From positions 1 to 64,000 of the forward strand of contig JBFOMH010000003.1 of NCBI GenBank assembly GCA_040830765.1: a stretch of 64,000 nucleotides of DNA, given 5' to 3'. This stretch comes from Puniceicoccaceae bacterium (GTDB taxonomy: Bacteria > Verrucomicrobiota > Verrucomicrobiia > Opitutales > Oceanipulchritudinaceae). The notes under the pieces are model-generated. The model was not told the origin of the DNA. It ran no database searches and saw only the letters and a list, made by a program, of their open reading frames with translations. The stretch's first letter is position 1, and every line of letters begins with the position of its first letter. Shown piece after piece: positions 8,901 to 61,067 of the stretch. A program made the translations under genes and the position numbers.

Positions 8901-9365
8901 CAACGGCAGGAGGCACTCCACCAATTCGCCCCCCTTGAAGTCCATACGGCTCCAGATGAGATGCCTCATGGCCTTGTCGGGGGTGATCCAGGGGCCGCCG
9001 GACATCGCCCAACCGGGACAGTTCTGCATCGTGAATTGCAGGCCAAGCCGGTCCGTCTCCCGACCGACATGGGCGATCATCCCATCCCAGGACGGACTGA
9101 GTGTCTGGATCTGAGGCGAAACGCCGGGCCATTCGTTGCCCCTGCCATGGAATAGCTGGATACCCTTGAACCCCGCCCCGGCCACTGCCTCCAAATCCAC
9201 GCTGAGCGCTTCCCGGTTAACGTTCCCCCCAATTAAGTGGAACCAGGTCTCCGGCTGGTACTGGGCATCGGGTCGAGAAAAGAAGTCTTGGACGGGCTCT
9301 GAGGACACAATTGGGGAGGTTAAGGATTGCAGGATCAGGATAATCAGGATTCGCGGATATTGCAT
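5916..9365 (-). CDS. GH106-like glycoside hydrolase (alpha-L-rhamnosidase family)
   Basis: Signal peptide; PETWFHLIGGN, GWAMSGGPW, IDSWE, AEAFT, LDLGRVANIAEVRLNG, VTNTW. Confidence 0.85.
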   Translation of the reverse strand: MQYPRILIILILQSLTSPIVSSEPVQDFFSRPDAQYQPETWFHLIGGNVNREALSVDLEAVAGAGFKGIQLFHGRGNEWPGVSPQIQTLSPSWDGMIAHVGRETDRLGLQFTMQNCPGWAMSGGPWITPDKAMRHLIWSRMDFKGGELVECLLPLPQPSEEEWRDFKDVAVLAFPTPLDDQADPLPPVAVRSNLPGQPWEALLSGETGEPVEIIPGGEPVWVEVEFAEPVSIRSLELPPTSHLAKRRIFDPDTTIILEAVTERGRVEVGRRDVPRGTWQDRQDEMVLSLAFPDSKASTYRISFVSPHPLQLEYLRLYSSARLNDWRGQAGYALRSLDYTGHPAQDCRTWIEPASIIDLSGQMDSSGGLRWNAPEGNWTVVRFGHVNTGIKNKPAPPEATGFECDKLSPAGAEQHFAGYIGRLTQEDGVLSGGRLDGMLIDSWECYTQTWTPALEREFENRRGYALRSWLPALAGWVVGDHKTSERFLRDWRATISDLLVDNYFGRLSELGRERGLKLSFETAVGDISPGDILQFYSKADIPMCEFWHPNDPHVGGFETKPIHPTVSAAHIYGKPVVAAEAFTNVWIRWDEHPWMLKHQADRHFALGVNHLIFHTYTHNPRLDLVPGTSFGSRIGTPFIRGQTWWRYMPLFTDYLARCHYLLQQGQPVADVLWYLGDAVDHKPRQDSPFPEGYRFDYLNADVLLNRLQVVDGRLRIPEGQEWKVIWLADEQCQRMTPATLARLKELIEAGATVIGGPPDSNPSLSGGKEAVASFDQLVHQLWGDNPEEGDRRHGLGRLVWGLSLQETLSDLGIEPDVTGIRPENWFHRRTVENEIYFITAGRSDPVRTNVRFRATGRPEFWNPLTGESTPVTVFHQTGQFTTIPVSLEAAGSVFVVFHQGKGDSVARRIEKDGQAALDPTDTSIADTSRPYPSYGLDIEDETQPWIQPAPPGVGFPDEEGRLVVWENGEYVIESESSGRQSHLVEGLTMRELDKDWTLAFPEGWDIPAQLTLSRLAPWSSLEDPAVRSFSGTVIYRTSFTVDEPSSRKPVLLDLGRVANIAEVRLNGHLLDTLWAPPFRSTITDCLVDGENHLEVRVTNTWRNRLAYDASLPEPERKTWTIHAPPPDAPIETAGLVGPVLLREGRVLTIH

Positions 9366-9385
9366 GGCACTTTGTAGTGGTTTTC

Positions 9386-11536: not shown

Positions 11537-11666
11537 AGGAATTTGGATAAGGTGTCCTGGGAAAAGGCTCAAGAAGAACAGACTAAAGTGCCAACCCATG
11601 GGTGCCCTACAATTAGGAGTTACCTGCTGGGGTGAAATTCACATGATTCACTATCTGAGAAAGGCC

Positions 11667-13487
11667 TTACATCATCTCAGCGGCAAGGACATGGAGGCGT
11701 CCGGGCTGCTCCAGTTCGAACACCACCGTTATAAAGTCCGCCGACACTGAATCATCCAACGGGATGACGACCTCATGCTGCTGCAGGTCAGGGACAACTG
11801 ATGCCGGGGTCCCGAAAAGCGGGGCAGCTCCCCAGCCGGCAACAGCACTGACAGCACAGTTCGTACTGACCTGGAGGCGCAGGCGGGTACCGTGGGGTCC
11901 CTCAGTCGGTGGAGAATACCGCAAGGTCACACTTTCCCCCGGGGACGTAACATTCAGGCGAGGAGAGTCGGAAGCCCCCGTAAAAAAGCCTCCCGAGACG
12001 ATTCGCCATCCGTTGACCGCAAGATTCGGGTCGTACCTGGGGTTCTGCTTGGGAACGAGCACCCCGTCTGTCCGGAGTCGCTCCTCAAGAAAAGCACTCA
12101 AGCGGGAAACAACCGCGGGATGCTCCGTGGCGAGGTCGACTGTTTCCCCGGGATCCGTCACCAGGTTGTAGAGTTCATAGGTATCTTCAAAGTCGGGCCC
12201 GGCGTGAAAAAAGCGGAAGAGCTTCCATTGGCCGTCACGGGCCCAGACATTGGAAATGTTCCCTGTGGCGAGGACCGTATGGCCAAACATACTGTAGATC
12301 GGGGGCCGCTCGAGGGTGCTCCCATCAAGGGACTCCATCAGGCTGACACCGTCGAGGAGGGCATCTTCAGGAGCCTCGAGGCCAACCATTTCGAGAAGGG
12401 TCGGATAAAAGTCGTAACTAACGGCGATTGTCTCACTGACAGTTTTTTCCGCCGCTTGCCCCGGCCATGAGACGATAAGGGGGACACGTGAACCGCCCTC
12501 ATGGTTGTTCCCCTTCCCCGCTCGCAGGGGATGGTTACTGGTTGGATTAACCCCTTCCGGGCGATTGTACATGTTGCCACCATTGTCGGACGTGAAGATG
12601 ACAATCGTGTCCTCGCGCAGACCGAGTTCATCGAGCACCGCCATGACCTTGCCAACATTGTCATCCAGGGTCTCCATCATGGCCCCCATGATGGCCGACT
12701 TCTGATGCACGGTCTTTTCCGTCAAGGGACGATACTTCTCGACCAGCTCCTCCTTGCCGACGAAGGGGGCGTGGACATCAAAGAACCACAAGGCGAGAAA
12801 GAAAGGCTCATCACGGCTTTCCCGGATAAAGCGGACCGCCTCGTCGCCAATGACATCATCCGCGTGCAGCGGCCCCTCGACCAGTGGCATGTTGGTCACT
12901 TCAGGATCCCAGGGACCGAAAAACCCGGGCGGCGGCGGTCCGGGAAAGCCGCGTCCCCCGACAACAACATCAAATCCGAAGTTTTCCGGAATGTAAGGAT
13001 CGAAACCAAGGTGCCACTTTCCCATGAATCCGGTCCGGTATCCTCCGGCCTTGAGGATTCTGGCAATACTCTGCGAGTCGAGCGGGAGACGGGTCCGCGT
13101 CTGCGGATTGGTCATTGGCAGGCCGACCGCACCAGTCTCCGGAACGACGGGATCCAGCACCACCTCAGGCAGGTGCCCGGCCGGCACGGTCAACCTCAGC
13201 CGCCCCGGCGTCTGACCGGTCAGGATACTGGCCCGCGTCGGGGAACACAGCGGGCTCGCCGAGTAGGCATTGGAGAACCGGACACCCCTTTCCGCGAGGG
13301 CATCCAGATGTGGTGTCTGGTGAAGCTCGCTGCCATAGCAACCAAGGTCCCGCCAGCCAACATCATCCCCCATCATGAAGATGATATTGGGTTGCCGGTC
13401 TGCCGAATGCAGGACGGGCGCAGCCAGGAGCAGGATTAAAAAGAGGGCCCGGAGGCACGCGGAGGAGGATGTTGTTGGATAAGCCAT
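11667..13487 (-). CDS. Formylglycine-dependent sulfatase with C-terminal extension
   Basis: PNIIFMMGDD, CSPTRASILTG (CxPxR), GKWHLG, SDNG. Confidence 0.95.
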   Translation of the reverse strand: MAYPTTSSSACLRALFLILLLAAPVLHSADRQPNIIFMMGDDVGWRDLGCYGSELHQTPHLDALAERGVRFSNAYSASPLCSPTRASILTGQTPGRLRLTVPAGHLPEVVLDPVVPETGAVGLPMTNPQTRTRLPLDSQSIARILKAGGYRTGFMGKWHLGFDPYIPENFGFDVVVGGRGFPGPPPPGFFGPWDPEVTNMPLVEGPLHADDVIGDEAVRFIRESRDEPFFLALWFFDVHAPFVGKEELVEKYRPLTEKTVHQKSAIMGAMMETLDDNVGKVMAVLDELGLREDTIVIFTSDNGGNMYNRPEGVNPTSNHPLRAGKGNNHEGGSRVPLIVSWPGQAAEKTVSETIAVSYDFYPTLLEMVGLEAPEDALLDGVSLMESLDGSTLERPPIYSMFGHTVLATGNISNVWARDGQWKLFRFFHAGPDFEDTYELYNLVTDPGETVDLATEHPAVVSRLSAFLEERLRTDGVLVPKQNPRYDPNLAVNGWRIVSGGFFTGASDSPRLNVTSPGESVTLRYSPPTEGPHGTRLRLQVSTNCAVSAVAGWGAAPLFGTPASVVPDLQQHEVVIPLDDSVSADFITVVFELEQPGRLHVLAAEMM

Positions 13488-13517
13488 TATGTGAAATTCA
13501 ATTGAGACAGTGGCATG

Positions 13518-15185
13518 TCATTTGCCTGCAGTTGATGCTGGCAAGGGAAAGGTGTCTTTCAGGCGCAAAGGCATCGCCGCAGGAACGTACCCCACTCCTG
13601 AGCCCCTGTCTCCCTGAGGTTCGTAGTGCGGGGAAGGAATTGTCGATTCAGGCACATATGCCTGGCCATTGTTGAATTGCAGCCACCAGTTGTCCCATTC
13701 GGCAGCCAGGGCTTTGAGGACTTCGGGATGGGAATGGGCAAGGTCGGTCACCTGCGTCCGATCATCGGCGAGGTAGTACAACTCCCAGCCATTGGCATCA
13801 ACTTCGGCAAGGCGCCAGTCGTTTGTGCGCAGGCCCCGGTTGTCCATGAATTGAAAATACAAGCTCCGGTCATTGTCCCAGTCTTTGTCCATGAGCAGCG
13901 GAACGAGGCTTCGTCCGGCCAGGCCGGATCCAGTTTCAACGGGCTTTGCATCCCTGGCACCCAACTCGACCAGGGTCGGCATGATGTCGATCATGTGGAC
14001 GGCATCATGGGAGATTTGACCCGCTTGAATGACGGCTGGCCACCAGGCAATTGCCCCGGTGCAGACACCCCCTTCATGCTGGCTGATCTTGTAGAGGCGC
14101 ATCGGCGTGTTATTGGCATAGGCCCAACCGCGGCCCGGCTGGTAATTGCTCCCACGGTCGCCGGGCAGAAGATCCCGGGCAATCATTTCCTCATCCAATA
14201 CGGAAAAGGAATCCGAACCATTGTCGCTCATGAAAAGTATCAGGGTGTTCTCCAAATCGCCGGTCTTTTCAAGGCAGGCCAACAACCTTCCGATGTCCTG
14301 GTCCATGATGTCGATCATGGCCGCATAGGTGGCCATCCTCAGGTCCTCAAGGTCCTTTTGCGCAGAAGACAGCGTATTCCAGTCGGGGAGGTTTTGCGGA
14401 TAAGGCGGAAGTTCGATTGCATCACCCATGATCCCCATGGCTTTCTGGCGGGCAAACCGTGCTTCCCGGATCGCCTGCCAGCCATCCAGATACTTCCCGC
14501 GGTACTTCCGGATGGCCTCCCTGGGGGCCTGCAGGGGATTGTGCGGCGCAGTGTAAGCAAGGTACAGAAAGAAGGGCTCGTCCCCGGAAAGGTCATTGTT
14601 TTCCCGGATGAAGCCAATGGCCGCATCCGTAAAGGCCGTGGTGGCATAAAATCCGGAATCAACCTCGCCCAGCGCTTCAAAGCCATCACGGAAATGGTCA
14701 TTGGGGACATAATAATCCGTGACCCCGTTCAGGATGCCGTAGAACCGGTCAAATCCCCGCTCCATTGGATGCCCTTCAAGATGCCACTTGCCCACGGCGT
14801 AGTTCCGGTATCCGGACTCCGCGAGCGCTTCAGGCAAGGTCTTACCGTCTTTGATTCCCCAACCGGCATCGGTGTGCCAGCGCCCGCTCAACAGCGACGT
14901 CCTTGAGGCGACACACATTCCTGCGTTGTAGAAGCTGGTCAACCGCAAGCCTCCCTCGCCGAGCCTGTCGAGGTTGGGGGTTGCGATCTCCCCACCAAAA
15001 CAACCGGCATCGGAGTAACCCATGTCATCGGCGACAATCAGGATGATGTTTGGTCGGGGCCCGGAGACAGTATCACCCTTGGCTGAAACCATCCCAGCAA
15101 CCGCGTTGCAGGTGGTGACAAAGGCGAAGATGAACAGGATGCAGATCTGCCGCCCTGCAGCAGATCCGGAATGGGCTCTATTCAT
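13518..15185 (-). CDS. Arylsulfatase-type sulfatase
   Basis: PNIILIVADDMGYSD, CVASRTSLLSG, GKWHL, YTAPH, SDNG; start placed at MNRAHS. Confidence 0.93.
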   Translation of the reverse strand: MNRAHSGSAAGRQICILFIFAFVTTCNAVAGMVSAKGDTVSGPRPNIILIVADDMGYSDAGCFGGEIATPNLDRLGEGGLRLTSFYNAGMCVASRTSLLSGRWHTDAGWGIKDGKTLPEALAESGYRNYAVGKWHLEGHPMERGFDRFYGILNGVTDYYVPNDHFRDGFEALGEVDSGFYATTAFTDAAIGFIRENNDLSGDEPFFLYLAYTAPHNPLQAPREAIRKYRGKYLDGWQAIREARFARQKAMGIMGDAIELPPYPQNLPDWNTLSSAQKDLEDLRMATYAAMIDIMDQDIGRLLACLEKTGDLENTLILFMSDNGSDSFSVLDEEMIARDLLPGDRGSNYQPGRGWAYANNTPMRLYKISQHEGGVCTGAIAWWPAVIQAGQISHDAVHMIDIMPTLVELGARDAKPVETGSGLAGRSLVPLLMDKDWDNDRSLYFQFMDNRGLRTNDWRLAEVDANGWELYYLADDRTQVTDLAHSHPEVLKALAAEWDNWWLQFNNGQAYVPESTIPSPHYEPQGDRGSGVGYVPAAMPLRLKDTFPLPASTAGK

Positions 15186-15383
15186 GAAGTGAATCAGGTG
15201 GATGGGTGGGGAAAGGTAAATGGGATGGCCCGAAAGCATCCCTCTTGTCGTCGATCACTGGTCTTACACATGGGCATTTCCCAGGCAATGGATCCGTTTT
15301 CAGAATATTATGATTACGCAGCAGACCCGGAAATCGATATGAGGATTGCCATGGATACCAGCCCTGCCTAGGCAAACAGTCTC

Positions 15384-35290: not shown

Positions 35291-37111
35291 ATGAAGCGAA
35301 CGCATCCATACGATCCCATTCAGTGGACCTCTCTGTTCCTCATTATCCTGCTTGTAGCCGTCCTCGGTGGTTGCCGTTCACCCGCTGATGTTGCTCCCCC
35401 GCCAAATCCCGGGCCAGCACCCGATATCCAGAGGGACAAGCGGCTGAGCGGAGATAATCCACAAGCCTCGAGGATTCTGGACTCAGCCGCCGAAGAAGCC
35501 GGGTCGCACCGCATCATCCTCCTTGAGTCGGGCGATGACGCCCTGCTGGCAAGGATCCACCTCATTCGTTCAGCCCGTGAATCCATCGACATCCAGACCT
35601 TCATCTGGGTCTATGACCGAAGCGGGCAATGGGTCTACCGGGAACTGCTGGAAGCCGCCCGTCGTGGTGTCAAGGTAAGGCTGCTCATTGACCAGTTCAT
35701 CAATCCCGAGCTACCGGCGGAGGAATACGCTGCCATCGCCACCGCCCATGAAAACCTGGAAATCCGGCTCTTCAGGCCCCTCACTGTAAATGCCATCAAC
35801 CGGCAATGGGACGTCACCCGACGCACCTTCACCCGCTTTGCGACGATGAACCACCGGATGCATCACAAGGTTTTCCTTGTTGACGGGCAGGCGGCCATTC
35901 TCGGCGGACGCAATTACCAGGACGCTTATTTCGACCGGGACTCCACGCTCAGTTTTCGGGATCGGGATGTCCTCGTAATGGGCCCCGCCTGCGACGACAT
36001 CAGCCGCTTTTTCGAACTCTTCTGGCAGCATGAGATGTCCTTCGAGGCAAGCCGGATGAAGGACCTCAAGAAAGCCCTTGAAACGGATGCGGCCCGTTTG
36101 CCGGATTCCCTCGAAGCCCCGCTGGACCCGATATTCCATGAGGACGACCTGCTGGCCAACCTCTATGATTTGAGAGCTATCCGGCCAACATTCAAGGAAT
36201 GGGTGGTCGGCAAAATCGAGTACATCTCCGACAAGCCGATCAAGGTCACTCAATACAGCAATCCGGGATTCCTCAATCCCTTCGCCAGCCTGAGGAATTT
36301 CATCGCCGAGGCAGACACTGAGGTTCTTATCCAGACTCCTTACTCGGTATTTGAGGACCGGACCTACAAGCGGTGGCGCAAGATTCGCAAGCAACGGCCG
36401 GAAGTCCGGGTCTGCCTCTCGACCAACAGTCTCTCATCCGCCGACCACGTCTATGTCGGCAGCATGGCCCTGAAACAGCGGCGGGCACAGATTGAGAGCC
36501 TCGGCATCGAGCTCTACCTTGCCAAGCCGGTTCCCGGGGACATCCGGGAGATGGTCCCTCGCTACGAAACATTGCTCCATGAGTCTGCCTCATCCCTTGA
36601 TCCGGACTGGGAAGAGGATCCGGAAATCATGCAACTGGACATTGAGGGTCCGCGCTTTTGCATCCATGCCAAGACGATGATCTTCGACCGCAAGATCAGT
36701 TTTATCGGCTCGCACAACTTTGATCCCCGTTCCATGAACCTGAACACGGAATGCGGTGTCGTCATCCGGGATGTCGCCTTTTCGCGGTATCTGGCGGAAT
36801 TTTACGACCGGGCGATCCATCCGGACAACAGTTGGGTCGTGGCCCCGAGGGATTTTGCGCCGATCGTCGGGGAAGTGAACAGTTTTATTGGCCTCGTCTC
36901 CACCAGCTTGCCCCTGTTCGACATCTGGCCGCTGGAGCATGTCTCCTGTTATGAAATGCTTGAAGGGGCGGAACCTCTCTCACCCTACGACGAGTCCTTC
37001 CACGAAAGCTATGAGGATGTTGGCCCCTTCCCCGGACTGGACCTTGGACTCGAACCCGTCAAGGTTCGACTCCTGAGGGCCATTGGGGATCCGGCAGTCC
37101 CCCTGATGTAG
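35291..37111 (+). CDS. Phospholipase D family lipoprotein (ClsC/YmdC-like)
   Basis: Lipobox LGG|C; two HKD motifs (HHKVFLVD, HAKTMIFD); GGRN; GSHNFDPRS. Confidence 0.9.
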   Translation: MKRTHPYDPIQWTSLFLIILLVAVLGGCRSPADVAPPPNPGPAPDIQRDKRLSGDNPQASRILDSAAEEAGSHRIILLESGDDALLARIHLIRSARESIDIQTFIWVYDRSGQWVYRELLEAARRGVKVRLLIDQFINPELPAEEYAAIATAHENLEIRLFRPLTVNAINRQWDVTRRTFTRFATMNHRMHHKVFLVDGQAAILGGRNYQDAYFDRDSTLSFRDRDVLVMGPACDDISRFFELFWQHEMSFEASRMKDLKKALETDAARLPDSLEAPLDPIFHEDDLLANLYDLRAIRPTFKEWVVGKIEYISDKPIKVTQYSNPGFLNPFASLRNFIAEADTEVLIQTPYSVFEDRTYKRWRKIRKQRPEVRVCLSTNSLSSADHVYVGSMALKQRRAQIESLGIELYLAKPVPGDIREMVPRYETLLHESASSLDPDWEEDPEIMQLDIEGPRFCIHAKTMIFDRKISFIGSHNFDPRSMNLNTECGVVIRDVAFSRYLAEFYDRAIHPDNSWVVAPRDFAPIVGEVNSFIGLVSTSLPLFDIWPLEHVSCYEMLEGAEPLSPYDESFHESYEDVGPFPGLDLGLEPVKVRLLRAIGDPAVPLM

Positions 37112-37135
37112 CCAATTTTGGCTACAGTTGGCAAT

Positions 37136-37795
37136 TCATTCCAACCCGTCCCGGGCAATGTTCTGGAAGTCCGTCTGGTTGACGAAGCCCTTCTGCATGG
37201 CGTAACGGATCAATTCGACCGTTGAGTGCAGTCCCAACTTGCGCATGATGCGCGCCTTGTGGTTCTGCACGCTGACCGGCCGCAGGTTCAGGCTCTCGGC
37301 AATCCGCTCGTTGGAGGCACCGGCCCCGAAGTAACGGAGCAGTTCCTGTTCCCGCTCGGTCAGGATTTTTGAAAACGCCAGGGGGTCCGTCTTCTGGATA
37401 AGCATGTTCTGCTGCACCGTGGCGGCATAATAGCAATTTCCTTCCCCAAGTTGCTGCACCGCTTTCTTCAGTTCCTCAATGGACTCGGTGTTCTTGTCAA
37501 CGAATCCAAACAGGCCGGTCATGAAGACCCGGTAGAGGGTGTACTCGTCGGTGCGTCCCGAGACACCGAGGATCCGCAGCTTGGGATTGACCTTGAGCAT
37601 GCGGTTGGCCAAGTCCAGACCGCTCCCGTCCGGCAGCTCAATATCGAGAATGGCGACATCCGGATTGTATTTTTCAAAGGCCTTCCACCCATCCTTGATA
37701 GTCTGGCAAGTGGCCACCAGTTCGAATTTTTCGGTCAGGCAATTACTGACCAGATCGATGCCCAGCTTTTGATCTTCAATGATGATGGTTTTCAT
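37136..37795 (-). CDS. NarL/LuxR-family response regulator
   Basis: IIEDQ, LDIELPDGSG, GFVDK; HTH LTEREQE..SNERIAESL..VQNHKARIMRKLG; ATGA overlap with kinase stop. Confidence 0.93.
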   Translation of the reverse strand: MKTIIIEDQKLGIDLVSNCLTEKFELVATCQTIKDGWKAFEKYNPDVAILDIELPDGSGLDLANRMLKVNPKLRILGVSGRTDEYTLYRVFMTGLFGFVDKNTESIEELKKAVQQLGEGNCYYAATVQQNMLIQKTDPLAFSKILTEREQELLRYFGAGASNERIAESLNLRPVSVQNHKARIMRKLGLHSTVELIRYAMQKGFVNQTDFQNIARDGLE

Positions 37796-40700
37796 GACCG
37801 TCTCCATTTCCGCAGTTCCAGTAGCCCTACGTGTATCTCGTCCATGTCACCGTTCTGGGCGGACACTTGTAAGTCACGACATACCTGCTGCATGGCGCGA
37901 TTATTCCGGATCATGGCGAGGGTAGTCAAGCGATGGGCGCATCGACGGAGATTTTCCCACTCGTAGCGGTCTCCGTAAAGGAGGCATTCGTCGATATGTT
38001 TGTAAATTTCCTCCATCACCTCATCGGCGGCTACCATATCGGTGGTGCTGGCGAGCTCCGGCTTGTAATTCTGGATATTGGCCAGACAGTAGGCCAGGCG
38101 GGCAGCTGTCAGTGGCTTGCTGATATAGCCATTCATGCCCGCTTCCTCGCTTTCGCGCTTTTTCTCCCCATCGGTATAGGCCGTTACGGCGACCAGGATA
38201 ACCTCGTCATCAGGATCCTTCTTGCGGTGGCGGCGGGCGATTTCCGGGCCGGTCAACCCGGGAAGGTCCCAATCCAGCAGGGCAAGGTAGTAGTCGTTCT
38301 TCTCCAGCTGTTCGAGGGCATCCCGGCCGTTCTCAGCCTCGTCGCAGGAACAACCAATGGTCTCAAAGAACTCCACCACCGAACGGCGGTTGTAGACCAG
38401 GTCATCCACGACGAGAATCTTTTTACCCTTCAACTGGGCCAGGACCGCCTCCTTGTCGAGCTCGGTGGCTCCCTCGACACGATCGAAGCGCCCCTTGAGG
38501 ACAAAGCGGCAACCGGAAGGTTGATTGTCTTCCAGCCGCAAGTGTCCCCCCATGGCATGGGCGATTTCCTGACAAATGGACAATCCCAGTCCCGTCCCGT
38601 GCTTCCCGCTTTCCACACCGCTTTCACCCCGGTAGAAGCGCTCAAAAATGAATTCGCGTTCGGACTCGTCAATGCCGATGCCCCAGTCGGCAACATACAG
38701 TTCAAGGTCGACTTCATGGTCGGTGATGTTGATGCAGGTGGCTCCAATCTCCACCCGGTCCGACTCCGCGTACTGGAGGGCATTAACCAGCAGGTTGCTC
38801 AAAATCTTGATCATCCAGTTCCGGTCTGTCCGGATGACGACATCAGCCAGTTCCGGGGAAATGACCGTGTTCAGGTTCACCATCTCATGCTGAAGGCTGA
38901 ACTGGTTCTGTTTCACCGAGCTCTCGATCAGGTCGTGGATGGAAACAGGTATGAAGGCCGTCGGGATGTTTTTCTGATCAATGGCCGAAAAGTCGAGGAT
39001 CTCACCCAGCATCCGGTCAACAATGACTCCGAATTCGGTCAGGTCCTTCAAGCGGGGATCATCTCCGGATTCCGGTGGATTCCTGGTCAGGGTCTCGGTA
39101 ATCATGAGAACCCCGTTCAAGGGATTGCGGATGTCATGCGACAAGCCGGCGAGGAAGTTAGTCCGAGCTGCGGTGGCGGCCTCCAATTCCCGTGTCTGTT
39201 TCTTGACCTCGCTTTGCAACCAGAGGTTGGTCCGCTTCAATTGCGCCGAACGCAGGGCGAACAAGCCCCAGAAAAAGAAGAGGGCCGCCACGACCATGAC
39301 TCCCTGGTAGATGGGATTCAAGTACCAGGGCGGGGCGATCCCGAATTGCACCAGCTTGGAGGAGGAAACATTTCCATTCGGGTGCATGGCCCGCAACTCC
39401 ACCGTGAAGTTGCCATGCCCGGCAAACTGCAGGGACGGATCCTGCAAATTGACGTTTCGCCACCGCTGCTCGTTGATGCGGTACTGGACGATGCTGGGAA
39501 TGTCCGGCTCGGAGAAATTCACCTGCAGGTCAATGAAGTGCATGCCGCTGGGAATGGTCCGGTCCTCGATGCGCTTGTCTTCCAGCAGCAGGGCAAACTC
39601 GACCCGGGGTGCCGCCGCTCGGGACAATTCCGGAACCGCATACCAACCGACACCATGCGCCCCGACGATGCCCAGCCGCTCACCCCCACCCATCAGGCCA
39701 ATTGCTTCCCCGGCCTGCTCCAGGAACGGAACGGTCATCATGATGTTGCCGGCGTCGGAATACATGCCGACGGCAAGGTTTCGCGTGGCTGGATCTTCAA
39801 AAAGGACATAGGTATCCTCGCCCGAGTTACTGAGTGACCTGACGGTCCATCCTGGTGCCAGGGGGAAGCGTTCCAGCGATTCACCCCTCCATCGATAGAC
39901 AACCGTCGGGGAGGCCAGCCAGACCGCATTCTCACCCGCCGCATGGGCAATGATGACGTCCTCCATCTTGTAGGGGAGCTCCACTGAGCGCCATCCGGAC
40001 CCTTCCCGGATTAACTGCAGAATCTGCTTGCCCCCGATGAGGGCGTAAAAGCCGGAATCCAATTCTCCAATCAGCTCAATCTGGCGCTCATCCTTGTGAA
40101 TCAGTTCGAGTTCGAATGTGTCGGAAACTGAGTAGATTCCCTCCACCCCAAGGGCAAAGCCCGTTGATTGGCCCCACTTGAAGCTGGATATCGGTTGGGT
40201 GAGCTCTCTTACCGACCAATCTTCTCCATTAAATTCTTCGTAAATATTAACTGCTCCCATCACTGGGAGGCCGTCCTTGTCAACATCCACCCAGCTCGCC
40301 GTCCGCAGGAGTTCACCTTTCTCATAACCATCATTATCCAACCGGATCCAACCCTCATCCAGAAAGAGAAAGCCTGCCTCTTCCCCAGCCAGAAAATGCC
40401 GGACACTGTCCCCTTCCCAAAGCTCCCCGGAAGGGAAAAACTTGGACTCCCTGCTGAAGTCAACCACCCCCACGCCCTTGTCACCAAGCATGGCGATCCG
40501 GGTTTTATCAAGGGCCCGGATCTTGAAAACATCGCCCAGATCCAGCTTTTCATCGCTGCTAACGCTTTCACTGATGCGTTCCAGTGACCGGTTCCATACC
40601 GCCACCCCGAGCGGGTACTCAGTAATGGCGATATAATCGCCAAGACCCGCTGAATTATTGATGCCCTTCTTGAAAAAGTCCCCGTAGTTGGAATTGATAA

Positions 40701-41406
40701 GAACCGGTTCATCGTTCTTCTTTCCCGACCAGTAATATACCCCGAAATTGGTCCCGAAGGTGTACTTCTCCCCGGTCCTTTCGAGCCAGGCGACCAGTTC
40801 TCCGTCCGTCATTTCAATGGGAAGGATAAGTTCCCGGCCTTCGGCCGTTATGCGCCAGATACCAGAACCTGACCCGACATACAAAAACGGATTTTCCGCA
40901 TCGGCATGGTAGACTACCGGCCGGGGATTAAAGGTCTCTTTCCAGTGCTGTCCGACTTGGAACGTATCTGGCTCGATCCATCCAAATCCCTCTGAAGCAA
41001 TATACCACAAACGGTCCAGGTACCACTCCAACGACCATACAAAACCGACTTCAAGGGTTGAGAATCCGACAAGTTTTCCCGATCTGTCGAAGCCGCCAAC
41101 ACCGGCGGAATCAGCAAACCAGAGTGTGTTTCCATTCGGTGAAACGGCGAGTGCGGTAACGCGCCCGGAGGGCCGTATTGTCTCCCACTGGTCACCGCTG
41201 AGCCGATACAATCCCTCCCCTGCGAGCCATATATCATCCGCGAACAGGCTGACATCATGATAGCTTGCCGGCGGCACCGATTCGAGCTTTTCGGCGAAGC
41301 GGTAGGCGGGACCCGTTAATGGATCCGCAATCAGGACGTTGATAAAATTTAATCCAACGAGGAATAGGAACTGTGGAAATATGGATGAAGACATTTTTTT
41401 AAACAT
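37792..41406 (-). CDS. Hybrid sensor histidine kinase (large propeller-like periplasmic sensor, Y_Y_Y-like, TM, HisKA, HATPase, REC, HPt-like)
   Basis: FLAGLSHDIRNPLN, NLLVNA, DWGIGI, GTGLGL, VVDD..LLDWDLP..SKP, C-terminal RCAHRL; start probably 41406 or 41394, not 41562. Confidence 0.92.
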   Translation of the reverse strand: MFKKMSSSIFPQFLFLVGLNFINVLIADPLTGPAYRFAEKLESVPPASYHDVSLFADDIWLAGEGLYRLSGDQWETIRPSGRVTALAVSPNGNTLWFADSAGVGGFDRSGKLVGFSTLEVGFVWSLEWYLDRLWYIASEGFGWIEPDTFQVGQHWKETFNPRPVVYHADAENPFLYVGSGSGIWRITAEGRELILPIEMTDGELVAWLERTGEKYTFGTNFGVYYWSGKKNDEPVLINSNYGDFFKKGINNSAGLGDYIAITEYPLGVAVWNRSLERISESVSSDEKLDLGDVFKIRALDKTRIAMLGDKGVGVVDFSRESKFFPSGELWEGDSVRHFLAGEEAGFLFLDEGWIRLDNDGYEKGELLRTASWVDVDKDGLPVMGAVNIYEEFNGEDWSVRELTQPISSFKWGQSTGFALGVEGIYSVSDTFELELIHKDERQIELIGELDSGFYALIGGKQILQLIREGSGWRSVELPYKMEDVIIAHAAGENAVWLASPTVVYRWRGESLERFPLAPGWTVRSLSNSGEDTYVLFEDPATRNLAVGMYSDAGNIMMTVPFLEQAGEAIGLMGGGERLGIVGAHGVGWYAVPELSRAAAPRVEFALLLEDKRIEDRTIPSGMHFIDLQVNFSEPDIPSIVQYRINEQRWRNVNLQDPSLQFAGHGNFTVELRAMHPNGNVSSSKLVQFGIAPPWYLNPIYQGVMVVAALFFFWGLFALRSAQLKRTNLWLQSEVKKQTRELEAATAARTNFLAGLSHDIRNPLNGVLMITETLTRNPPESGDDPRLKDLTEFGVIVDRMLGEILDFSAIDQKNIPTAFIPVSIHDLIESSVKQNQFSLQHEMVNLNTVISPELADVVIRTDRNWMIKILSNLLVNALQYAESDRVEIGATCINITDHEVDLELYVADWGIGIDESEREFIFERFYRGESGVESGKHGTGLGLSICQEIAHAMGGHLRLEDNQPSGCRFVLKGRFDRVEGATELDKEAVLAQLKGKKILVVDDLVYNRRSVVEFFETIGCSCDEAENGRDALEQLEKNDYYLALLDWDLPGLTGPEIARRHRKKDPDDEVILVAVTAYTDGEKKRESEEAGMNGYISKPLTAARLAYCLANIQNYKPELASTTDMVAADEVMEEIYKHIDECLLYGDRYEWENLRRCAHRLTTLAMIRNNRAMQQVCRDLQVSAQNGDMDEIHVGLLELRKWRRS

Positions 41407-41425
41407 ACTGTAAAAATGGAGCCCT

Positions 41426-41593
41426 ATGAAAAACATCAAACGCATCCTAATACTCGTTGTGGCTATCTGTTTAGCCTCAGTCGGGCTAAATGCACAAGCT
41501 GAAACCGTCAGTAAGAAGGTAATCAAGGATTTGGACTCCAAGAGTTCCGGTTCCATTCTCATGAGTATCTACTGTATCGTCGGCATCAAGTAG
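41426..41593 (+). CDS. Unlisted 55-aa small secreted peptide, candidate RiPP precursor
   Basis: Hand translation: MKNIKRILILVVAICLASVGLNAQA|ETVSKKVIKDLDSKSSGSILMSIYCIVGIK*; Sec-type signal with AxA site; GGAG 4 nt upstream; directly upstream of the YcaO-like gene. Confidence 0.65.
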   Translation: MKNIKRILILVVAICLASVGLNAQAETVSKKVIKDLDSKSSGSILMSIYCIVGIK

Positions 41594-41650
41594 CCCTTAG
41601 GAGTAACGCAACACTGAATACTAACCGTAACGTATAACAAAGGCCTAGAA

Positions 41651-42631
41651 ATGACCACCCTGTCACAGTCAGCAACGCTGCCCGTTCCCTATGATTTGAG
41701 CGCAGCACCCGAATGGTTCCTCAAGAAAGCACGCTTCGCCAAGCGGTTTTTCCTGAATCTTGCCCCCATCCGCTATGCGCTGGCTGCTGAAGAAGGGGGT
41801 CCTATCAGCCAGGTGGAATACGGCCAGGCGGAATACATGGGCCAGCTCTGGCAGCTGTGCCGGGCGACCTTGCAGGAGGATTTCCAGCACCCGATGGGGA
41901 AAAAGCTGGAGTTGTTCTCCTCCGCAGACGGCTCGGGCATGGGGCTGACACGGCTTGAGGCCCGCGCCAAGGCTATCTCCGAAGCCCTCGAACGCTGGGC
42001 CTACACGGAGACCAGTTCCGGACCGGACGCTGTTCTCTATGGATATCCGTATTCCATGAGTACCAAGGGCATGGCCGCCTTTCCCAGTGTTTTCCCGGGA
42101 ATGGCACGCCGCACCGCCATTTCAGAGGCTTTTGAATACTACTCGGTGGACGCGTGGTGGGGAGGCACTCTCAACCACTGGATAATCAATCGGGACGATT
42201 CAACTATCGTCTTCATCAACCAGCCTGAGTTCAAGGGACATATCGCCTTGGCTATCCGGCACCTCGACCTGAACGACTATGTCGCCGCTTACGGGATAGG
42301 ATCGGGTGCTACGGCTGAAGAAGCCGAACTCAAGGCACAACTGGAAGCCTGCCGCTCACAGACCATTCTCGAACGGCGTGATGCGACACCCCACCGTGTC
42401 CGTAACAAGCCCGTCCTGGAAATGGAACAACGCCTGCTCGAGTTCTCTTCGCGCGAAGGCTTTGCCATGGTCAAGGATCGTCTTGCCAGTCGCCCGTGGT
42501 TGCCGGAAATCAAGCCCAACGTCATCTTCGACGGACCGGTCAAGGGACCATGGAATAAGTACGCCCATGTCTGGCGCTACGCACTGGAGCCCTTCCCGAT
42601 TAAGTATCGCCAACGTCAGTTTGTTGCCTGA
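41651..42631 (+). CDS. Short YcaO-like protein
   Basis: GSGMG..EARAKAISEALERW, STKGMAA..ARRTAISEAFE, GIGSG..AELKAQLE resemble the three Glu-containing ATP/Mg motifs of YcaO. Confidence 0.7.
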   Translation: MTTLSQSATLPVPYDLSAAPEWFLKKARFAKRFFLNLAPIRYALAAEEGGPISQVEYGQAEYMGQLWQLCRATLQEDFQHPMGKKLELFSSADGSGMGLTRLEARAKAISEALERWAYTETSSGPDAVLYGYPYSMSTKGMAAFPSVFPGMARRTAISEAFEYYSVDAWWGGTLNHWIINRDDSTIVFINQPEFKGHIALAIRHLDLNDYVAAYGIGSGATAEEAELKAQLEACRSQTILERRDATPHRVRNKPVLEMEQRLLEFSSREGFAMVKDRLASRPWLPEIKPNVIFDGPVKGPWNKYAHVWRYALEPFPIKYRQRQFVA

Positions 42632-42698
42632 CCAGGCACCGCTGCTGCCAATCTGCTGTCAATCTCCACAAACCGTCTTCATCCTAACCACAGGCACA

Positions 42699-43193
42699 AT
42701 GAGCACGCATGAAAGCACTTTCAACTTCCCGTTCATCTCCAACCTGATTTCTGACAAGGCTGGTGAGCGAACGAGCCAATTCCGTAAACAGGCTGTCTCC
42801 ATGAAAGAAAAAGCCCTCTGCCTTGACGACGACCCCCTTTCGCTTCGTCTGGTTGAGCACCTGTTGAAGGAGCGCTACCAGGTTGTTTCCTGTCCCACCA
42901 TTGATGCCGCAGTCAAGGCGGTACGGCGGCACAAGTTCTGCCTCTTCCTGTGCGACTATCATCTCGGGGAGCATTTCACTGGCGCTCGCGCCAACGAAAT
43001 CCTCACCCGGAAATACCGTTTCAATCCAATCCACCGGGTTCTGATCACTTCCTACCCGTCGCCGGAAATTGAAAAGGAGACCCTGGCCAGCGGATTTGAA
43101 AGAGTATTCGCAAAACCGCTACGTCGAGAGTTCCAATCCTATTGCCTGAGCCTTTACCGTCCTCCCCTCAAGAGTGGCATGGCCGTAGGCTGA
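42699..43193 (+). CDS. Single-domain response regulator receiver protein
   Basis: CLDDD, FLCDYHL, LITS, FAKPL; start at 42699 or 42801. Confidence 0.8.
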   Translation: MSTHESTFNFPFISNLISDKAGERTSQFRKQAVSMKEKALCLDDDPLSLRLVEHLLKERYQVVSCPTIDAAVKAVRRHKFCLFLCDYHLGEHFTGARANEILTRKYRFNPIHRVLITSYPSPEIEKETLASGFERVFAKPLRREFQSYCLSLYRPPLKSGMAVG

Positions 43194-43409
43194 ATCCAGC
43201 AAGCGAAGCCCCCGTCATGATTGCCATTACCACCATAGGCCTTCTGGCCAATGGAACCCACCCCGTCCCCCGGGATGGCCACCCGAGACCTCGTACGGTC
43301 CGGAGGGGTTGCCGACCCCTGCCCAAGCCCGCCACTGTCCGCGTCAGGAAGGATCGGGGAGAACGCTAAAATTATTGCCAGCGGGATAAGGAAACGGCTT
43401 CCTTGAAGC

Positions 43410-45599
43410 ATGACTCTCGCTGCCAGACTGACGGCCTTGTTGATTATCGTCGCCGTCACGCCCGACCTCCCGGGCAAACCCAAGCCGGTTCCGGCTACCG
43501 GGCATGGAGTGCCACCGCCTCCGGTTGAGCTGAGCGGATCAAACGACACCCTGCTGCAGGCCAACCTGGCACCTGAGAACCAATATTCGATCGGCAGTCC
43601 CTCCGATGAAGAGCAGGCCATTGTCGAGATGATTAACCGGGCCCGTGCGGATGCCGACGCGGAAGCGCTACGTCTCGCCAATACCACCGACCAGGATGTC
43701 CTGGATGCGATCTGCTTTTTTGGTGTCAACCTGCCGGAGATGATCAACCAGTTCGCTGCCCTCCCCCAGTCCCTTCCCCCGCTTTCCATCCATCCTGAAT
43801 TAACGGATATGGCCCGCCTTCATTCCCAGGACATGTTTGACAATGTTTTCCAGGGCCACACCAGTTCCGGCACTCCCCCCGCTCCCTACTCCGCCGGGGA
43901 CACACTCTCAGACCGTGCTGCCGAGTTCACCTATGCCTACACGACGCTCGGAGAGAATGTTTATGCCTTCGCCAGATCTGATGCCTATGGTCATGCCAGT
44001 TTTGAAATCGACTGGGGATTCGATGCCTTTGGGATGCAAAGCCCACCGGAACACCGGGAAACGATTCATGATGCCCGATTTAAGGAAATTGGAATTGGCA
44101 TTATCAAGGGAACTAATTCGACCGAGTCCCTGACCGTTGGTCCCTTGCTGATGACCCAGGTATTCGGCGAGCCCCAGTCGTCAGGTCCCTTTATTACGGG
44201 CGTCGCCTATTACGACCTCAATGGAAATGGATTTTATGACGCCGGAGAGGGACTTGGCGGATTGACCGTTTCCACCGAGGAAACGACGGCCTGGGCACTG
44301 ACCGCAAACAGCGGGGGTTACTCCATTCCGGTCCCGTCGGATGGCGCCTACACGGTTACATTTTCCGGGTTAGGCATCACGCCCCAGACTACGGTCGTCA
44401 ACGTGGCGTCCGGGGAAAACATCAAGCAGGACTTTGCCATTGGATATGTCCCACCCGTCCTCTCCGGCTCATCCACGCCCTTTACCGGGATCGACAACGA
44501 ATATGCCATATCTCCAACGCCAGGAGCTACTGGCTACTGGTTCAAGGTATATACTGAAAATGTCACTACATGGCTGGAGGGGGCCGAGAACGGTAACACG
44601 GATGTCACGATCCTCAACAGCCCTGAATACGTCGTCATCCAGGGAGAGGTGGTCCGCAACGGGGCCAATGCCTTTCACCTTGCCCATCCGGGAGGCGGAA
44701 GCGACCAGGTCATCACGCTTCAGCATACCATATTTCCAACCGCCAGCAGTGAACTTCGTTTTGGCAGCAAGCTGCAGTATGCAACCTCCTCGCAAACGGC
44801 CAATGTGGACGTATCCACCAACGAAGGAATATCATGGACCAATATTTACCGCCAGACAGGATCCAACTCCAGCGGGGAAGCCGGTTTTGTCTACCGTTTT
44901 GTCCCTCTGGGAAGTTATGCCGGCCAACCGCTGCGGATTCGCTTCCGCTACTCCGTTGAAGGATGCAACCCCTCCATCTACGATGGTATCACCACAAACA
45001 TTGGCTGGATTATCGACGACATTACGGTGGCCAACGCGACCCGCTTGCTCCCGGAAAGCGAATTCATCCTGGGGTCCCCAATAGCGACTTTCAATCCCGC
45101 CACCGCCGGGGAATTCTACCTCACTGCCCGTCCGGTCAACAATTTCAAGGGCTTCCCCTATGGTCCGCTCCTCAAGGTAACATCCGGACCTGCCGGGCCG
45201 CAGGACTTGTGGCGGCTGGATAACTTCCTCCAGGCCGACCTCAATGACTCAGCCAAGGAATCGACAATATGGGGCGACCTCGCTGATCCCGACAAGGATG
45301 GATTGGGCAACTTACTTGAGTACGCCCTGGCGGGTAATCCCAACCTCGCCGATGCCCACATGATTATGCCGCAGTTCGGCCGGTCGGGAGGTGTCCTGAC
45401 GCTCAGTTACACGATGCAACGCTCTGAATTGAGCTACCGCGTCCTGACGAATACGGATCTCCAGGACCAGCCATGGACATCAACCGGGGTCAGCCAGACG
45501 CCGGATCCCGACACCGCGAGCGAAGGCACCCCCATAGAGGCTTCCGTGACCCTCGGCGTTGGTCGCCGTTTCCTGCAGCTTGAGGTGGTTGAGCCCTGA
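43410..45599 (+). CDS. Secreted multidomain CAP (SCP) protein
   Basis: INRARAD, ARLHSQDM, GEN, HRETI, EIGIG; SdrD-like YYDLNGNGFYDAGEG; C-terminal DPDKDG..EYAL tail. Confidence 0.8.
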   Translation: MTLAARLTALLIIVAVTPDLPGKPKPVPATGHGVPPPPVELSGSNDTLLQANLAPENQYSIGSPSDEEQAIVEMINRARADADAEALRLANTTDQDVLDAICFFGVNLPEMINQFAALPQSLPPLSIHPELTDMARLHSQDMFDNVFQGHTSSGTPPAPYSAGDTLSDRAAEFTYAYTTLGENVYAFARSDAYGHASFEIDWGFDAFGMQSPPEHRETIHDARFKEIGIGIIKGTNSTESLTVGPLLMTQVFGEPQSSGPFITGVAYYDLNGNGFYDAGEGLGGLTVSTEETTAWALTANSGGYSIPVPSDGAYTVTFSGLGITPQTTVVNVASGENIKQDFAIGYVPPVLSGSSTPFTGIDNEYAISPTPGATGYWFKVYTENVTTWLEGAENGNTDVTILNSPEYVVIQGEVVRNGANAFHLAHPGGGSDQVITLQHTIFPTASSELRFGSKLQYATSSQTANVDVSTNEGISWTNIYRQTGSNSSGEAGFVYRFVPLGSYAGQPLRIRFRYSVEGCNPSIYDGITTNIGWIIDDITVANATRLLPESEFILGSPIATFNPATAGEFYLTARPVNNFKGFPYGPLLKVTSGPAGPQDLWRLDNFLQADLNDSAKESTIWGDLADPDKDGLGNLLEYALAGNPNLADAHMIMPQFGRSGGVLTLSYTMQRSELSYRVLTNTDLQDQPWTSTGVSQTPDPDTASEGTPIEASVTLGVGRRFLQLEVVEP

Positions 45600-60086: not shown

Positions 60087-61067
60087 TCACTTCCTCGGAT
60101 GAAACTTCTCATGCGCCTCGACGAGTCGTTTGCGGTCGACCCGGGTATAGATCTCAGTGGTTCCGATATCGGCATGGCCCAGCATTTCCTGGATGGCACG
60201 CAGGTCCGCCCCGTTGGAGAGGAGATGGGTGGCGAAGGAATGCCTAAGGAGGTGCGGCTTGACCGGTTTCTTAATCCCTGCCCTCTGGGCGTATTCCTTG
60301 ATCCAATACCAAATCGTCTTGCGGGAAAGGGCTGTCCCGCGGTTGCTCAGGAAAAGGGCACTCCCGGTCTTGGGACGCACCATGGAAGGACGTGCGTTGT
60401 GCAGGTAGCGCTGAATCGCTTCCCCTGCCTGACGCCCCACCGGGACGAGGCGGTCCTTGCCCCGCTTGCCTGCCTCGACGCGTAAGAAGCCATCTTCCAG
60501 ATCGAGGTCCTGCAGGGACAGTTGGCACAGCTCCGTTACCCGCAGGCCACTGCTGTACATCAGCTCAAGAAAGGCACGGTCCCGCAATCCCTGGGCGGAA
60601 TGGCGACTGGGCGCATCTAGGAGGGCATCAACCTCCTCCGGCGAAAGCGTATCTGGCAGTTGACGGGCCAGTTTCGGCCCGCTGACCAGCTCGGTAAAGT
60701 CACTGCCAATCACCTTTTCCGCCAGCAGGAAACGGGCGCAATGTTTGATGGCGCTCAGCTTGCGGGCCAGGGAAGCCGCAGAGTAGTCAGCCCCGTCGAG
60801 CGACTGCAACCAGGCCGAGATATCCTCACCAGCCACGGATTCCCAACCCGACTTCTTCCGTTTTGTAGCGATAAACTGGGCACACTGGCAAAGGTCCCGC
60901 TGGTACCCCTCGACGGTATGCCGCGAGTGTCCCTTTTCCAGCTCGATAAAGACCCCGAAGGCATCAAGCCCATCCGCCAGTCCGGGCGGCAGACTATCAA
61001 TGGCTGAATCAATGGATTCGCTCCATCGCCGCTGCTTCTTCAGGGACATGCTTCGATTAGAGGACAT
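60087..61067 (-). CDS. xerD: Tyrosine recombinase XerD
   Basis: RDRAFLELMYSSGLRVTEL, PHLLRHSFATHLL.GADLRAIQEMLGHADI.TTEIYT. Confidence 0.88.
   Translation of the reverse strand: MSSNRSMSLKKQRRWSESIDSAIDSLPPGLADGLDAFGVFIELEKGHSRHTVEGYQRDLCQCAQFIATKRKKSGWESVAGEDISAWLQSLDGADYSAASLARKLSAIKHCARFLLAEKVIGSDFTELVSGPKLARQLPDTLSPEEVDALLDAPSRHSAQGLRDRAFLELMYSSGLRVTELCQLSLQDLDLEDGFLRVEAGKRGKDRLVPVGRQAGEAIQRYLHNARPSMVRPKTGSALFLSNRGTALSRKTIWYWIKEYAQRAGIKKPVKPHLLRHSFATHLLSNGADLRAIQEMLGHADIGTTEIYTRVDRKRLVEAHEKFHPRK

Follow-up and report, generated by a model that had tools for sequence, protein, structure and literature searches.

A conserved module of peptide, YcaO-type enzyme and two-component system in Opitutales that may form a modified-peptide signaling loop

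Nisin (NisA, NisK and NisR) and agr (AgrD, AgrB, AgrC and AgrA) are autoinducing peptide circuits that operate with a two-component system. Bufferins, a group of peptides that are ribosomally made and then modified post-translationally (RiPPs), arise in Gram-negative bacteria from Sec-signal precursors; conserved Cys residues are heterocyclized in the cytoplasm by an MNIO (DUF692) enzyme with a DUF2063 partner, and the product is exported to the periplasm and functions in copper binding (PMC11626156). Here we analyze a locus at 37136..43193 of a 64-kb stretch of DNA (hereafter the window) from a Puniceicoccaceae bacterium (contig JBFOMH010000003.1, assembly GCA_040830765.1). The locus encodes a small peptide, a YcaO-type enzyme, a hybrid histidine kinase, a LuxR-type regulator and a receiver-only protein, and an initial annotation had read it as a signaling system in which the YcaO-modified, exported peptide is the ligand of the kinase. 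As a whole, that interpretation is partly supported: the module of peptide, enzyme, kinase and regulator is self-contained and conserved in Opitutales, and modification of the peptide by the enzyme, its role as kinase ligand and its action from cell to cell are three steps that we infer.

The five-gene layout first proposed for the window was recovered in full. On the minus strand, a LuxR/NarL-type response regulator (37136..37807; Pfam Response_reg 62.1 bits, GerE 60.9 bits) and a hybrid histidine kinase of 1204 aa (37792..41406; HisKA, HATPase_c and Response_reg by Pfam) lie head-to-head with a plus-strand series comprising an open reading frame (ORF) for a 55-aa precursor peptide (41426..41593), a gene for a compact YcaO-fold enzyme of 326 aa (41651..42631) and a gene for a receiver-only protein (42699..43193; Response_reg 35.6 bits). 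The regulator has two possible ATG starts, both of which overlap the end of the kinase gene, so the translational coupling suggested earlier for this pair is plausible; the second of them, at 37795, shares an ATGA with the stop codon of the kinase gene and may be the true start. The longest version of the kinase ORF spans 37792..41562 on the minus strand. We took 41406 as its start because tblastn alignments of relatives begin at residue 1–2 of that version, and the overlap of the peptide ORF is confined to the 5′ extension that this start leaves unused.

Of the 310 pattern matches in a genome scan, 261 were confirmed as relatives, and the best 80 of these 261 were analyzed as loci (designated by L numbers). 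All 80 carry labels of Verrucomicrobiota lineages except two metagenome-assembled genomes (MAGs), L009 ("Agromyces") and L068 ("Bdellovibrionales"); both labels likely result from mis-binning, the loci themselves being of Opitutales type. The peptide sequence of L009 is the same as that of L004. Peptide genes were identified with a heuristic that accepts plus-strand ORFs of 35–110 aa bearing an uncharged hydrophobic 13-mer near the start and lying at most 600 nt upstream of the YcaO-like gene. Counts were made over the 75 loci with at least 350 nt of upstream sequence, and loci missed by the heuristic were read by eye in three frames. In 73 of these 75 loci, a same-strand peptide ORF immediately precedes the YcaO-like gene: 64 were found by the heuristic and nine of its 11 misses by eye (L020, L031, L032, L037, L050, L053, L057, which is atypical, L060 and L065). 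For kinase and regulator, counts were made over the 51 loci whose upstream sequence reaches 4.6 kb or more. An intact divergent hybrid kinase ORF, of at least 700 aa and with its 5′ end within 1.3 kb, is found in 44 of them, and a LuxR regulator upstream of the YcaO-like gene in 45; five more loci (L020, L048, L074, L077 and L009) contain kinase matches. The initial annotation had made its case depend on such a conserved neighborhood, which is therefore borne out by these counts. Pfam scanning of 71 of the 89 ORFs listed for 12 loci, with distal and antisense ORFs set aside, revealed nothing else conserved in these neighborhoods: there was no E1-like/ThiF, TfuA, dehydrogenase, MNIO or peptidase-transporter gene, and no immunity gene or dedicated transporter is conserved beside the module in this set. 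Because the arrangement recurs across relatives that share only 31–39% identity in the YcaO-like protein, it lies far beyond chance, and we hold with high confidence that peptide, YcaO-like enzyme, kinase and regulator are functionally linked as one unit.

The product of the peptide gene in the window is MKNIKRILILVVAICLASVGLNAQAETVSKKVIKDLDSKSSGSILMSIYCIVGIK (55 aa). It is predicted to consist of a Sec-type signal peptide at residues 1–25 (AQA, followed by E) and an exported part of 30 aa that includes Cys50. Close pairs of homologs show purifying selection on the peptide, with a ratio of nonsynonymous to synonymous changes per site (pN/pS) of 0.05–0.14; synonymous sites saturate in more distant pairs. 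Between the window and L003 we counted 17 synonymous and 8 nonsynonymous changes (pN/pS 0.14), and between the window and L004, 18 and 9. We aligned 40 peptides, that of the window and those of 39 loci in which a single candidate stood out clearly; G20, A25 and C50 are the only invariant positions. The signal-peptide features are otherwise kept: 39 of the 40 have one to four Lys/Arg residues at the N-terminus, an uncharged run of 13–22 residues is present in the N-terminal part, and 37 have a (-3,-1) small-residue site within -2 to +3 of the invariant Ala (A25). The leader is followed by a short motif that is conserved and in most Opitutaceae reads [EQ]-x-[FL]-D-P-[LV], then by a hypervariable stretch and a Cys-bearing end, often P-C or C-x-x-P-C. 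A core Cys occurs in 61 of 64 loci, the exceptions being L013, whose upstream DNA is cut, L029 and L048; the number of such Cys is one in 32 loci, two in 19 and three to five in 10. The Cys core is duplicated in tandem, giving multi-core precursors, in L033 (2770..3015), L045 (7764..7988) and L059 (7728..7955), as well as in the database members P0272, P0284 and P0305.

A profile built from the 40 peptides matched 138 database clusters at E ≤ 1e-3, with E values down to 2e-15. All are unnamed "hypothetical proteins" that carry no Pfam domain, and among the matches listed a Cys follows the leader in 119 of 120 members. Searches of the 40 peptides themselves gave no Pfam match (0/40) and a single, chance-level match in NCBIfam, and a look-up of the window peptide in the Atlas returned only scores below 0.9. 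Judged by sequence, the conserved leader, variable Cys core, multi-core variants and position before the enzyme gene together make up the usual signature of a RiPP precursor. Two further observations concern individual loci. One subclade (L011, L012, L014, L015, L019, L021, L023, L024 and L025) has two tandem signal-peptide ORFs, the first ending in a Cys motif and the second having a closely similar leader and no Cys; in L037, the peptide ORF is broken by a masked stretch of N immediately behind the leader motif, which renders the core unreadable.

The YcaO-like identity assigned earlier to the product of 41651..42631 is borderline by sequence. The Pfam YcaO profile (PF02624) aligns with residues 95–119 only of the window enzyme, and NCBIfam returns TIGR03604 at E 0.003; scores of relatives straddle the Pfam cut-off of 25.7 (34.0, 31.1, 29.0 and 25.8, and also 24.1–33.0 bits). 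We built an AlphaFold2 (AF2) model on 23 of the 120 homologs listed, 495 having reached E ≤ 1e-3, and obtained a predicted local distance difference test score (pLDDT) of 86.4 and a predicted template modeling score (pTM) of 0.86. Foldseek matched this model to 40 PDB entries at E ≤ 1e-3, and all of those listed, up to rank 39, are YcaO structures, with query TM-scores of 0.35–0.56; they include M. kandleri and M. jannaschii YcaO, LynD, TruD, McbD, E. coli YcaO and 7u58. Because the fold settles what the sequence leaves borderline, we assign the enzyme to YcaO.

The family also retains the residues expected of an ATP-using enzyme of this type. In the Pfam register, window residue 95 falls on profile position 1 and on E. 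coli residue 59; this aligns E111, E114 and R115 with E. coli E75, E78 and R79. The motif pattern pairs E159/E162 with E. coli E199/E202, and [KR]228/E232 with R286/E290. We take E75/E78, E199/E202 and R286/E290 of E. coli YcaO to be ATP/Mg-binding residues. In an alignment of 264 of 267 proteins (those of 270–380 aa being kept), many of them close relatives so that counts are not independent, E111 is conserved in 260 members, E114 in 263, E159 in 260, E162 in 262, E232 in 262 and R309 in all 264. From these patterns, the family looks like an active enzyme. A direct hhalign comparison with E. coli YcaO was dropped; it had a probability of 5.6% and was off-register, placing the family's first E-x-x-E-R on the second of E. 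coli.

Members of the family are compact, at about 295–326 aa, and cover positions 1 to ~280 of the 325 in the Pfam profile. The AF2 model contains no N-terminal recognition domain of winged helix-turn-helix size, the enzyme lacks YcaO_C, and a look for longer, fused forms gave none, although this last is weak evidence. The enzyme is stand-alone, with no recognition-domain partner, and is taken to be cytoplasmic. A profile search against 1.84 billion representatives shows the family to be discrete: 680 proteins match at E ≤ 1e-3, and 307 of them reach E ≤ 1e-30. Its closest named members come from Puniceicoccaceae, Oceanipulchritudo, Opitutales and Opitutaceae, and the YcaO-like protein of L001, a Puniceicoccaceae MAG, is 98% identical to that of the window. 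The third Atlas cluster, a YcaO of 339 aa whose commonest phylum is Pseudomonadota, scores 0.93 to the window enzyme, and the compact type may extend outside Verrucomicrobiota.

The kinase has a first transmembrane helix (TM1) at residues 8–27, ~670 periplasmic residues and a second helix (TM2) at 699–721. Its phosphorelay residues are H757 in HisKA, D1045 in the receiver and a near-invariant C-terminal H1158; the histidine phosphotransfer (HPt) match around the latter is weak in the window (E 0.03; 15 bits against a Pfam cut-off of 24.6) and passes the cut-off in relatives' kinases, which by Pfam carry Reg_prop, Y_Y_Y and Hpt domains. We modeled kinase residues 1–700 with AF2 on an alignment of 17 sequences. 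The model (pLDDT 89.7) shows an N-terminal helix followed almost throughout by strands, and in the PDB it most closely matches periplasmic domains from B. thetaiotaomicron, those of BT4673, BT4663 and BT3049 (E 3.5e-22 to 1.5e-19); the PDB title of BT4663 refers to heparin and heparan sulphate sensing. As modeled, the sensor fold is a tandem β-propeller with an immunoglobulin (Ig)-like domain. The mean pairwise distance among loci is 0.775 for the sensor and 0.77 for the peptide core, against 0.635 for the cytoplasmic part of the kinase. We considered and rejected a disulfide linking the kinase to the Cys of the peptide, since no periplasmic Cys is conserved among 13 kinases.

A candidate operator lies upstream of the peptide gene. 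When we aligned the 180 nt that precede the peptide start in nine loci of the close clade, the most conserved stretch was GTTGATAAAATTTAATCCAAC at 41338..41358, an imperfect 21-bp palindrome, without assigned strand, that occurs once in the window. It sits inside the codons of kinase TM1, with its center ~78 nt upstream of the peptide start codon. In L010 a perfect palindrome occupies the same place with both arms changed, and the encoded amino acids differ, which argues for constraint on the DNA itself. Palindromes of ~20 bp with other half-sites are found at about -95 to -45 in other subclades (L024, L044, L045, L052, L062, L074 and L077), those of L045, L062, L074 and L077 being of the type CTACC-N-GGTAG. 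Across loci, a best palindrome with at least eight arm matches in the interval -160 to -31 was present in 20 of 62, versus 56 of 620 mononucleotide shuffles. The simplest reading is that the palindrome is a candidate binding site for a dimeric helix-turn-helix protein; this protein would most likely be the module's own LuxR-type regulator. That the two-component system controls the peptide operon is, in our view, probable.

We tentatively propose that the two-component system drives production of a peptide that is modified by the YcaO, exported through Sec and then acts in turn on the periplasmic β-propeller sensor of the kinase. The hybrid kinase would relay phosphate from H757 to D1045, to H1158 of the HPt and on to the LuxR-type regulator, which would bind the ~20-bp palindrome upstream of the divergent operon and drive its expression. 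The operon would yield the small Sec-signal precursor together with the compact cytoplasmic YcaO. Before export and with ATP, this enzyme would activate an amide of the peptide backbone, either at the invariant Cys or beside it, a thiazoline being the simplest product; for heterocyclization of Cys in the cytoplasm with Sec export afterwards, bufferins provide a direct precedent. Sec and signal peptidase would then release a peptide of ~30 aa into the periplasm, where it would act on the β-propeller sensor and close an autoinduction or feedback loop. The loop would become quorum-sensing-like if the peptide also crossed the outer membrane. We think it somewhat more likely than not that the YcaO-like enzyme modifies the peptide; that the exported peptide acts on the kinase is conceivable and held with less than even confidence. 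The most specific version, in which a heterocycle-bearing peptide is the cognate autoinducer of the propeller kinase in a pheromone system native to diderm Verrucomicrobiota, we regard as unlikely. We favor the full loop because the module is self-contained, because peptide core and sensor are both hypervariable, because the module lacks immunity and export genes, and because the operon of some clades includes a receiver.

Several results weigh against this loop, beginning with the module's composition. L026 and L068 have no evident peptide ORF when all three frames are read by eye, and in L036 and L068 the YcaO-like gene has neither a histidine kinase nor a LuxR regulator within the 8-kb flanks; L036 keeps its peptide ORF despite missing the kinase. 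Only 15 of 71 loci have a receiver match in the 1.1 kb that follow the YcaO-like gene. The receiver-only protein, counted earlier as a part of the system, is indeed present in the window but is an accessory, confined to the clade of the window and a small number of other clades, and does not belong to the core; its place in the operon of those 15 loci fits a regulatory circuit. As for the enzyme, that of the window scores 23.8 bits, under the Pfam cut-off; searches of PDB sequences, with the single protein or a 23-sequence profile, returned no YcaO; Arg163, found in 218 of the 264 aligned members, is replaced by Tyr (37 of 264) in the clade to which the window belongs; and the enzyme alignment holds no conserved C-terminal PxPxP. 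As for the sensor, known examples of its predicted fold read glycans, and its closest structures are glycan-sensing domains of Bacteroides hybrid two-component systems. In a partial Mantel test over 39 loci, in which shared ancestry dominates everything, the peptide core and the sensor were correlated at r=0.07 (p ~0.05) once the cytoplasmic part of the kinase was controlled for, a negligible specific signal, and the peptide tracked that cytoplasmic part at least as strongly as the sensor. For action between cells, a peptide of ~30 aa should not pass porins, and no outer-membrane export route is conserved among the 71 neighboring ORFs of the 12 loci. Finally, bufferins are already Sec-exported, Cys-heterocycle periplasmic effectors (PMC11626156), which speaks against the strong form of the proposal.

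The main rival account keeps all but the last step of the proposed mechanism. According to it, the two-component system responds to a different signal in the periplasm (for example a glycan fragment, envelope stress or metal stress) by turning on the divergent operon, and the modified Cys peptide is a periplasmic or secreted effector (a bufferin-like metal binder, a protectant or an antimicrobial) and not the ligand of the kinase. This is a real possibility, if on the doubtful side. The match of the sensor model to Bacteroides hybrid two-component periplasmic domains, including the heparin/heparan-sulphate sensor BT4663, agrees with it, as do the Reg_prop and Y_Y_Y domains of relatives' kinases, the abundance of sulfatases in the window along with a GH106 rhamnosidase, and the missing signal of specific peptide-sensor co-evolution; the upstream palindrome shows regulation of the operon alone, and bufferins offer an example of Sec-exported Cys-heterocycle RiPPs acting as periplasmic effectors (PMC11626156). 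Yet no glycan-utilization, immunity or exporter genes are conserved beside the module, the flanks varying among loci; the core is hypervariable except for one Cys, unlike a conserved metal site; and the operon of some clades contains a receiver protein.

A second alternative dispenses with YcaO chemistry on the peptide, which would instead stay membrane-anchored or periplasmic and regulate the kinase through its Cys while the YcaO-like enzyme acts elsewhere. The action of MgrB on PhoQ provides a model for such modulation of a kinase by a small peptide. An N-terminal hydrophobic segment combined with a conserved Cys would suit this role, three of the 40 peptides have no (-3,-1) site near the invariant Ala, and the enzyme has no adjoining leader-recognition domain or partner. 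Protein-modifying YcaO enzymes are also known: E. coli YcaO is reported to modify the protein backbone of uL16 (PMC13063428). We nonetheless consider this account improbable, given that in 73 of 75 loci the gene immediately before that of the YcaO-like enzyme, in the same orientation, encodes the peptide, that the 13 kinases share no conserved periplasmic Cys, and that the pattern of leader and core, with its core duplications, is typical of RiPP precursors. The notion that the 55-aa ORF is spurious and its neighborhood coincidental, for which one could cite the shortness of the ORF, its lack of a Pfam or NCBIfam family and its overlap with the longest version of the kinase ORF, has a negligible chance of being right, contradicted as it is by purifying selection, by position and features conserved in 73 of 75 loci, by 138 database clusters with E down to 2e-15 and by linkage to kinase and regulator in most loci.

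Some features of the locus and its surroundings stand apart from the proposed loop. The start codons of kinase (41406) and peptide (41426) are 19 nt apart on opposite strands; each promoter must therefore lie inside the other gene, and overlapping 5′ ends are expected for the two transcripts. They could interfere with each other's transcription or exert antisense control. The corresponding start-to-start gap in Opitutaceae loci is ~120 nt (e.g., L045 and L071). Scanning 36900..43600 for sigma-70 promoters and terminators gave one promoter-like site, versus 2.9 expected, and nothing useful near the peptide gene. On the plus strand, the module is flanked by a 729-aa protein with CAP and CarboxypepD_reg-like domains (43410..45599; tblastn matches in two of 80 loci, L001 and L003) and by a 606-aa PLD-like protein (35291..37111; matches in two of 80, L001 and L004), both of which we place outside the conserved module because each is matched in only two loci. 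Elsewhere, at 5916..15239 and 60087..61067, the window encodes the GH106 rhamnosidase, two sulfatases and major facilitator superfamily (MFS) sugar transporters, and also a XerC/D-like tyrosine recombinase; from their annotation, the surrounding genes fit a polysaccharide-degrading lifestyle.

The initial annotation knew of no described system of this architecture in the lineage, and our search agrees: we found no published module of YcaO, peptide and kinase there in the open full-text literature, while subscription papers or supplements, which lay outside its scope, could hold one. The ingredients (two-component RiPP signaling, Sec-exported RiPPs, YcaO chemistry and propeller sensors) are each known, but not their combination, nor the compact YcaO clade. 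If our reading is correct, the locus would represent a compact, partner-less YcaO clade with a new precursor family, and, with bufferins as the first, a second case of a bacterial RiPP exported by the general Sec pathway. To our knowledge, almost no cell-cell signaling has been described in Verrucomicrobiota, for which this would be the first candidate for modified-peptide signaling through a two-component system; the Bacteroides-type β-propeller sensor fold would gain a possible non-glycan ligand. In the pheromone version, which we regard as unlikely, hypervariable cores together with variable sensors would define "pherotypes" across >200 species. Carriers within the family include the cultured Horticoccus sp. 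(L045) and Oleiharenicola lentus (L071).

How the module relates to the described systems can be set out feature by feature. As in agr and nisin, precursor, maturation enzyme, histidine kinase and response regulator are co-encoded, a candidate operator precedes the peptide operon, and the leader is conserved while the core varies. The host, in contrast, is a diderm member of the Verrucomicrobiota; the maturase is a YcaO and not a lanthipeptide synthetase or AgrB; export is predicted to proceed by a Sec signal peptide, without a dedicated transporter or protease; and the kinase, of which the peptide is a putative ligand, is of the hybrid type, its large periplasmic sensor being a β-propeller, and has an HPt. 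The precursors resemble those of bufferins in coming from Gram-negative bacteria and in their Sec-signal features. Bufferin precursors are longer, have four to six Cys and come without a dedicated kinase and regulator (PMC11626156), and neither MNIO nor DUF2063 genes appear in the Pfam lists of the window ORFs and the 12-locus neighbors.

With canonical YcaO proteins, namely the azoline-forming LynD, TruD and McbD, the thioamide-forming archaeal enzymes and E. coli YcaO, the window enzyme has its predicted fold in common, and it keeps the E-x-x-E-R motifs in register with E. coli E75/E78/R79. It differs in that its family is much shorter and has neither YcaO_C nor a conserved PxPxP, and no E1-like, Ocin-ThiF, TfuA or dehydrogenase partner is encoded among the window ORFs or the 71 neighbors from 12 loci. 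Azoline-forming cyclodehydratases, those of the thiazole/oxazole-modified microcins (TOMMs), have a C-terminal PxPxP motif; this motif is not conserved in the window family, for which those ORFs include no such partner and the AF2 model shows no fused recognition domain. Finally, the kinase resembles the Bacteroides hybrid two-component systems BT4663, BT4673 and BT3049 in the tandem β-propeller and Ig-like fold modeled for its sensor and in joining HisKA, HATPase and receiver on one chain. Where those systems have a fused AraC output domain, however, the window kinase has an HPt-like end and a separate LuxR-type regulator, and its conserved neighbor is the peptide-YcaO operon instead of a polysaccharide utilization locus.

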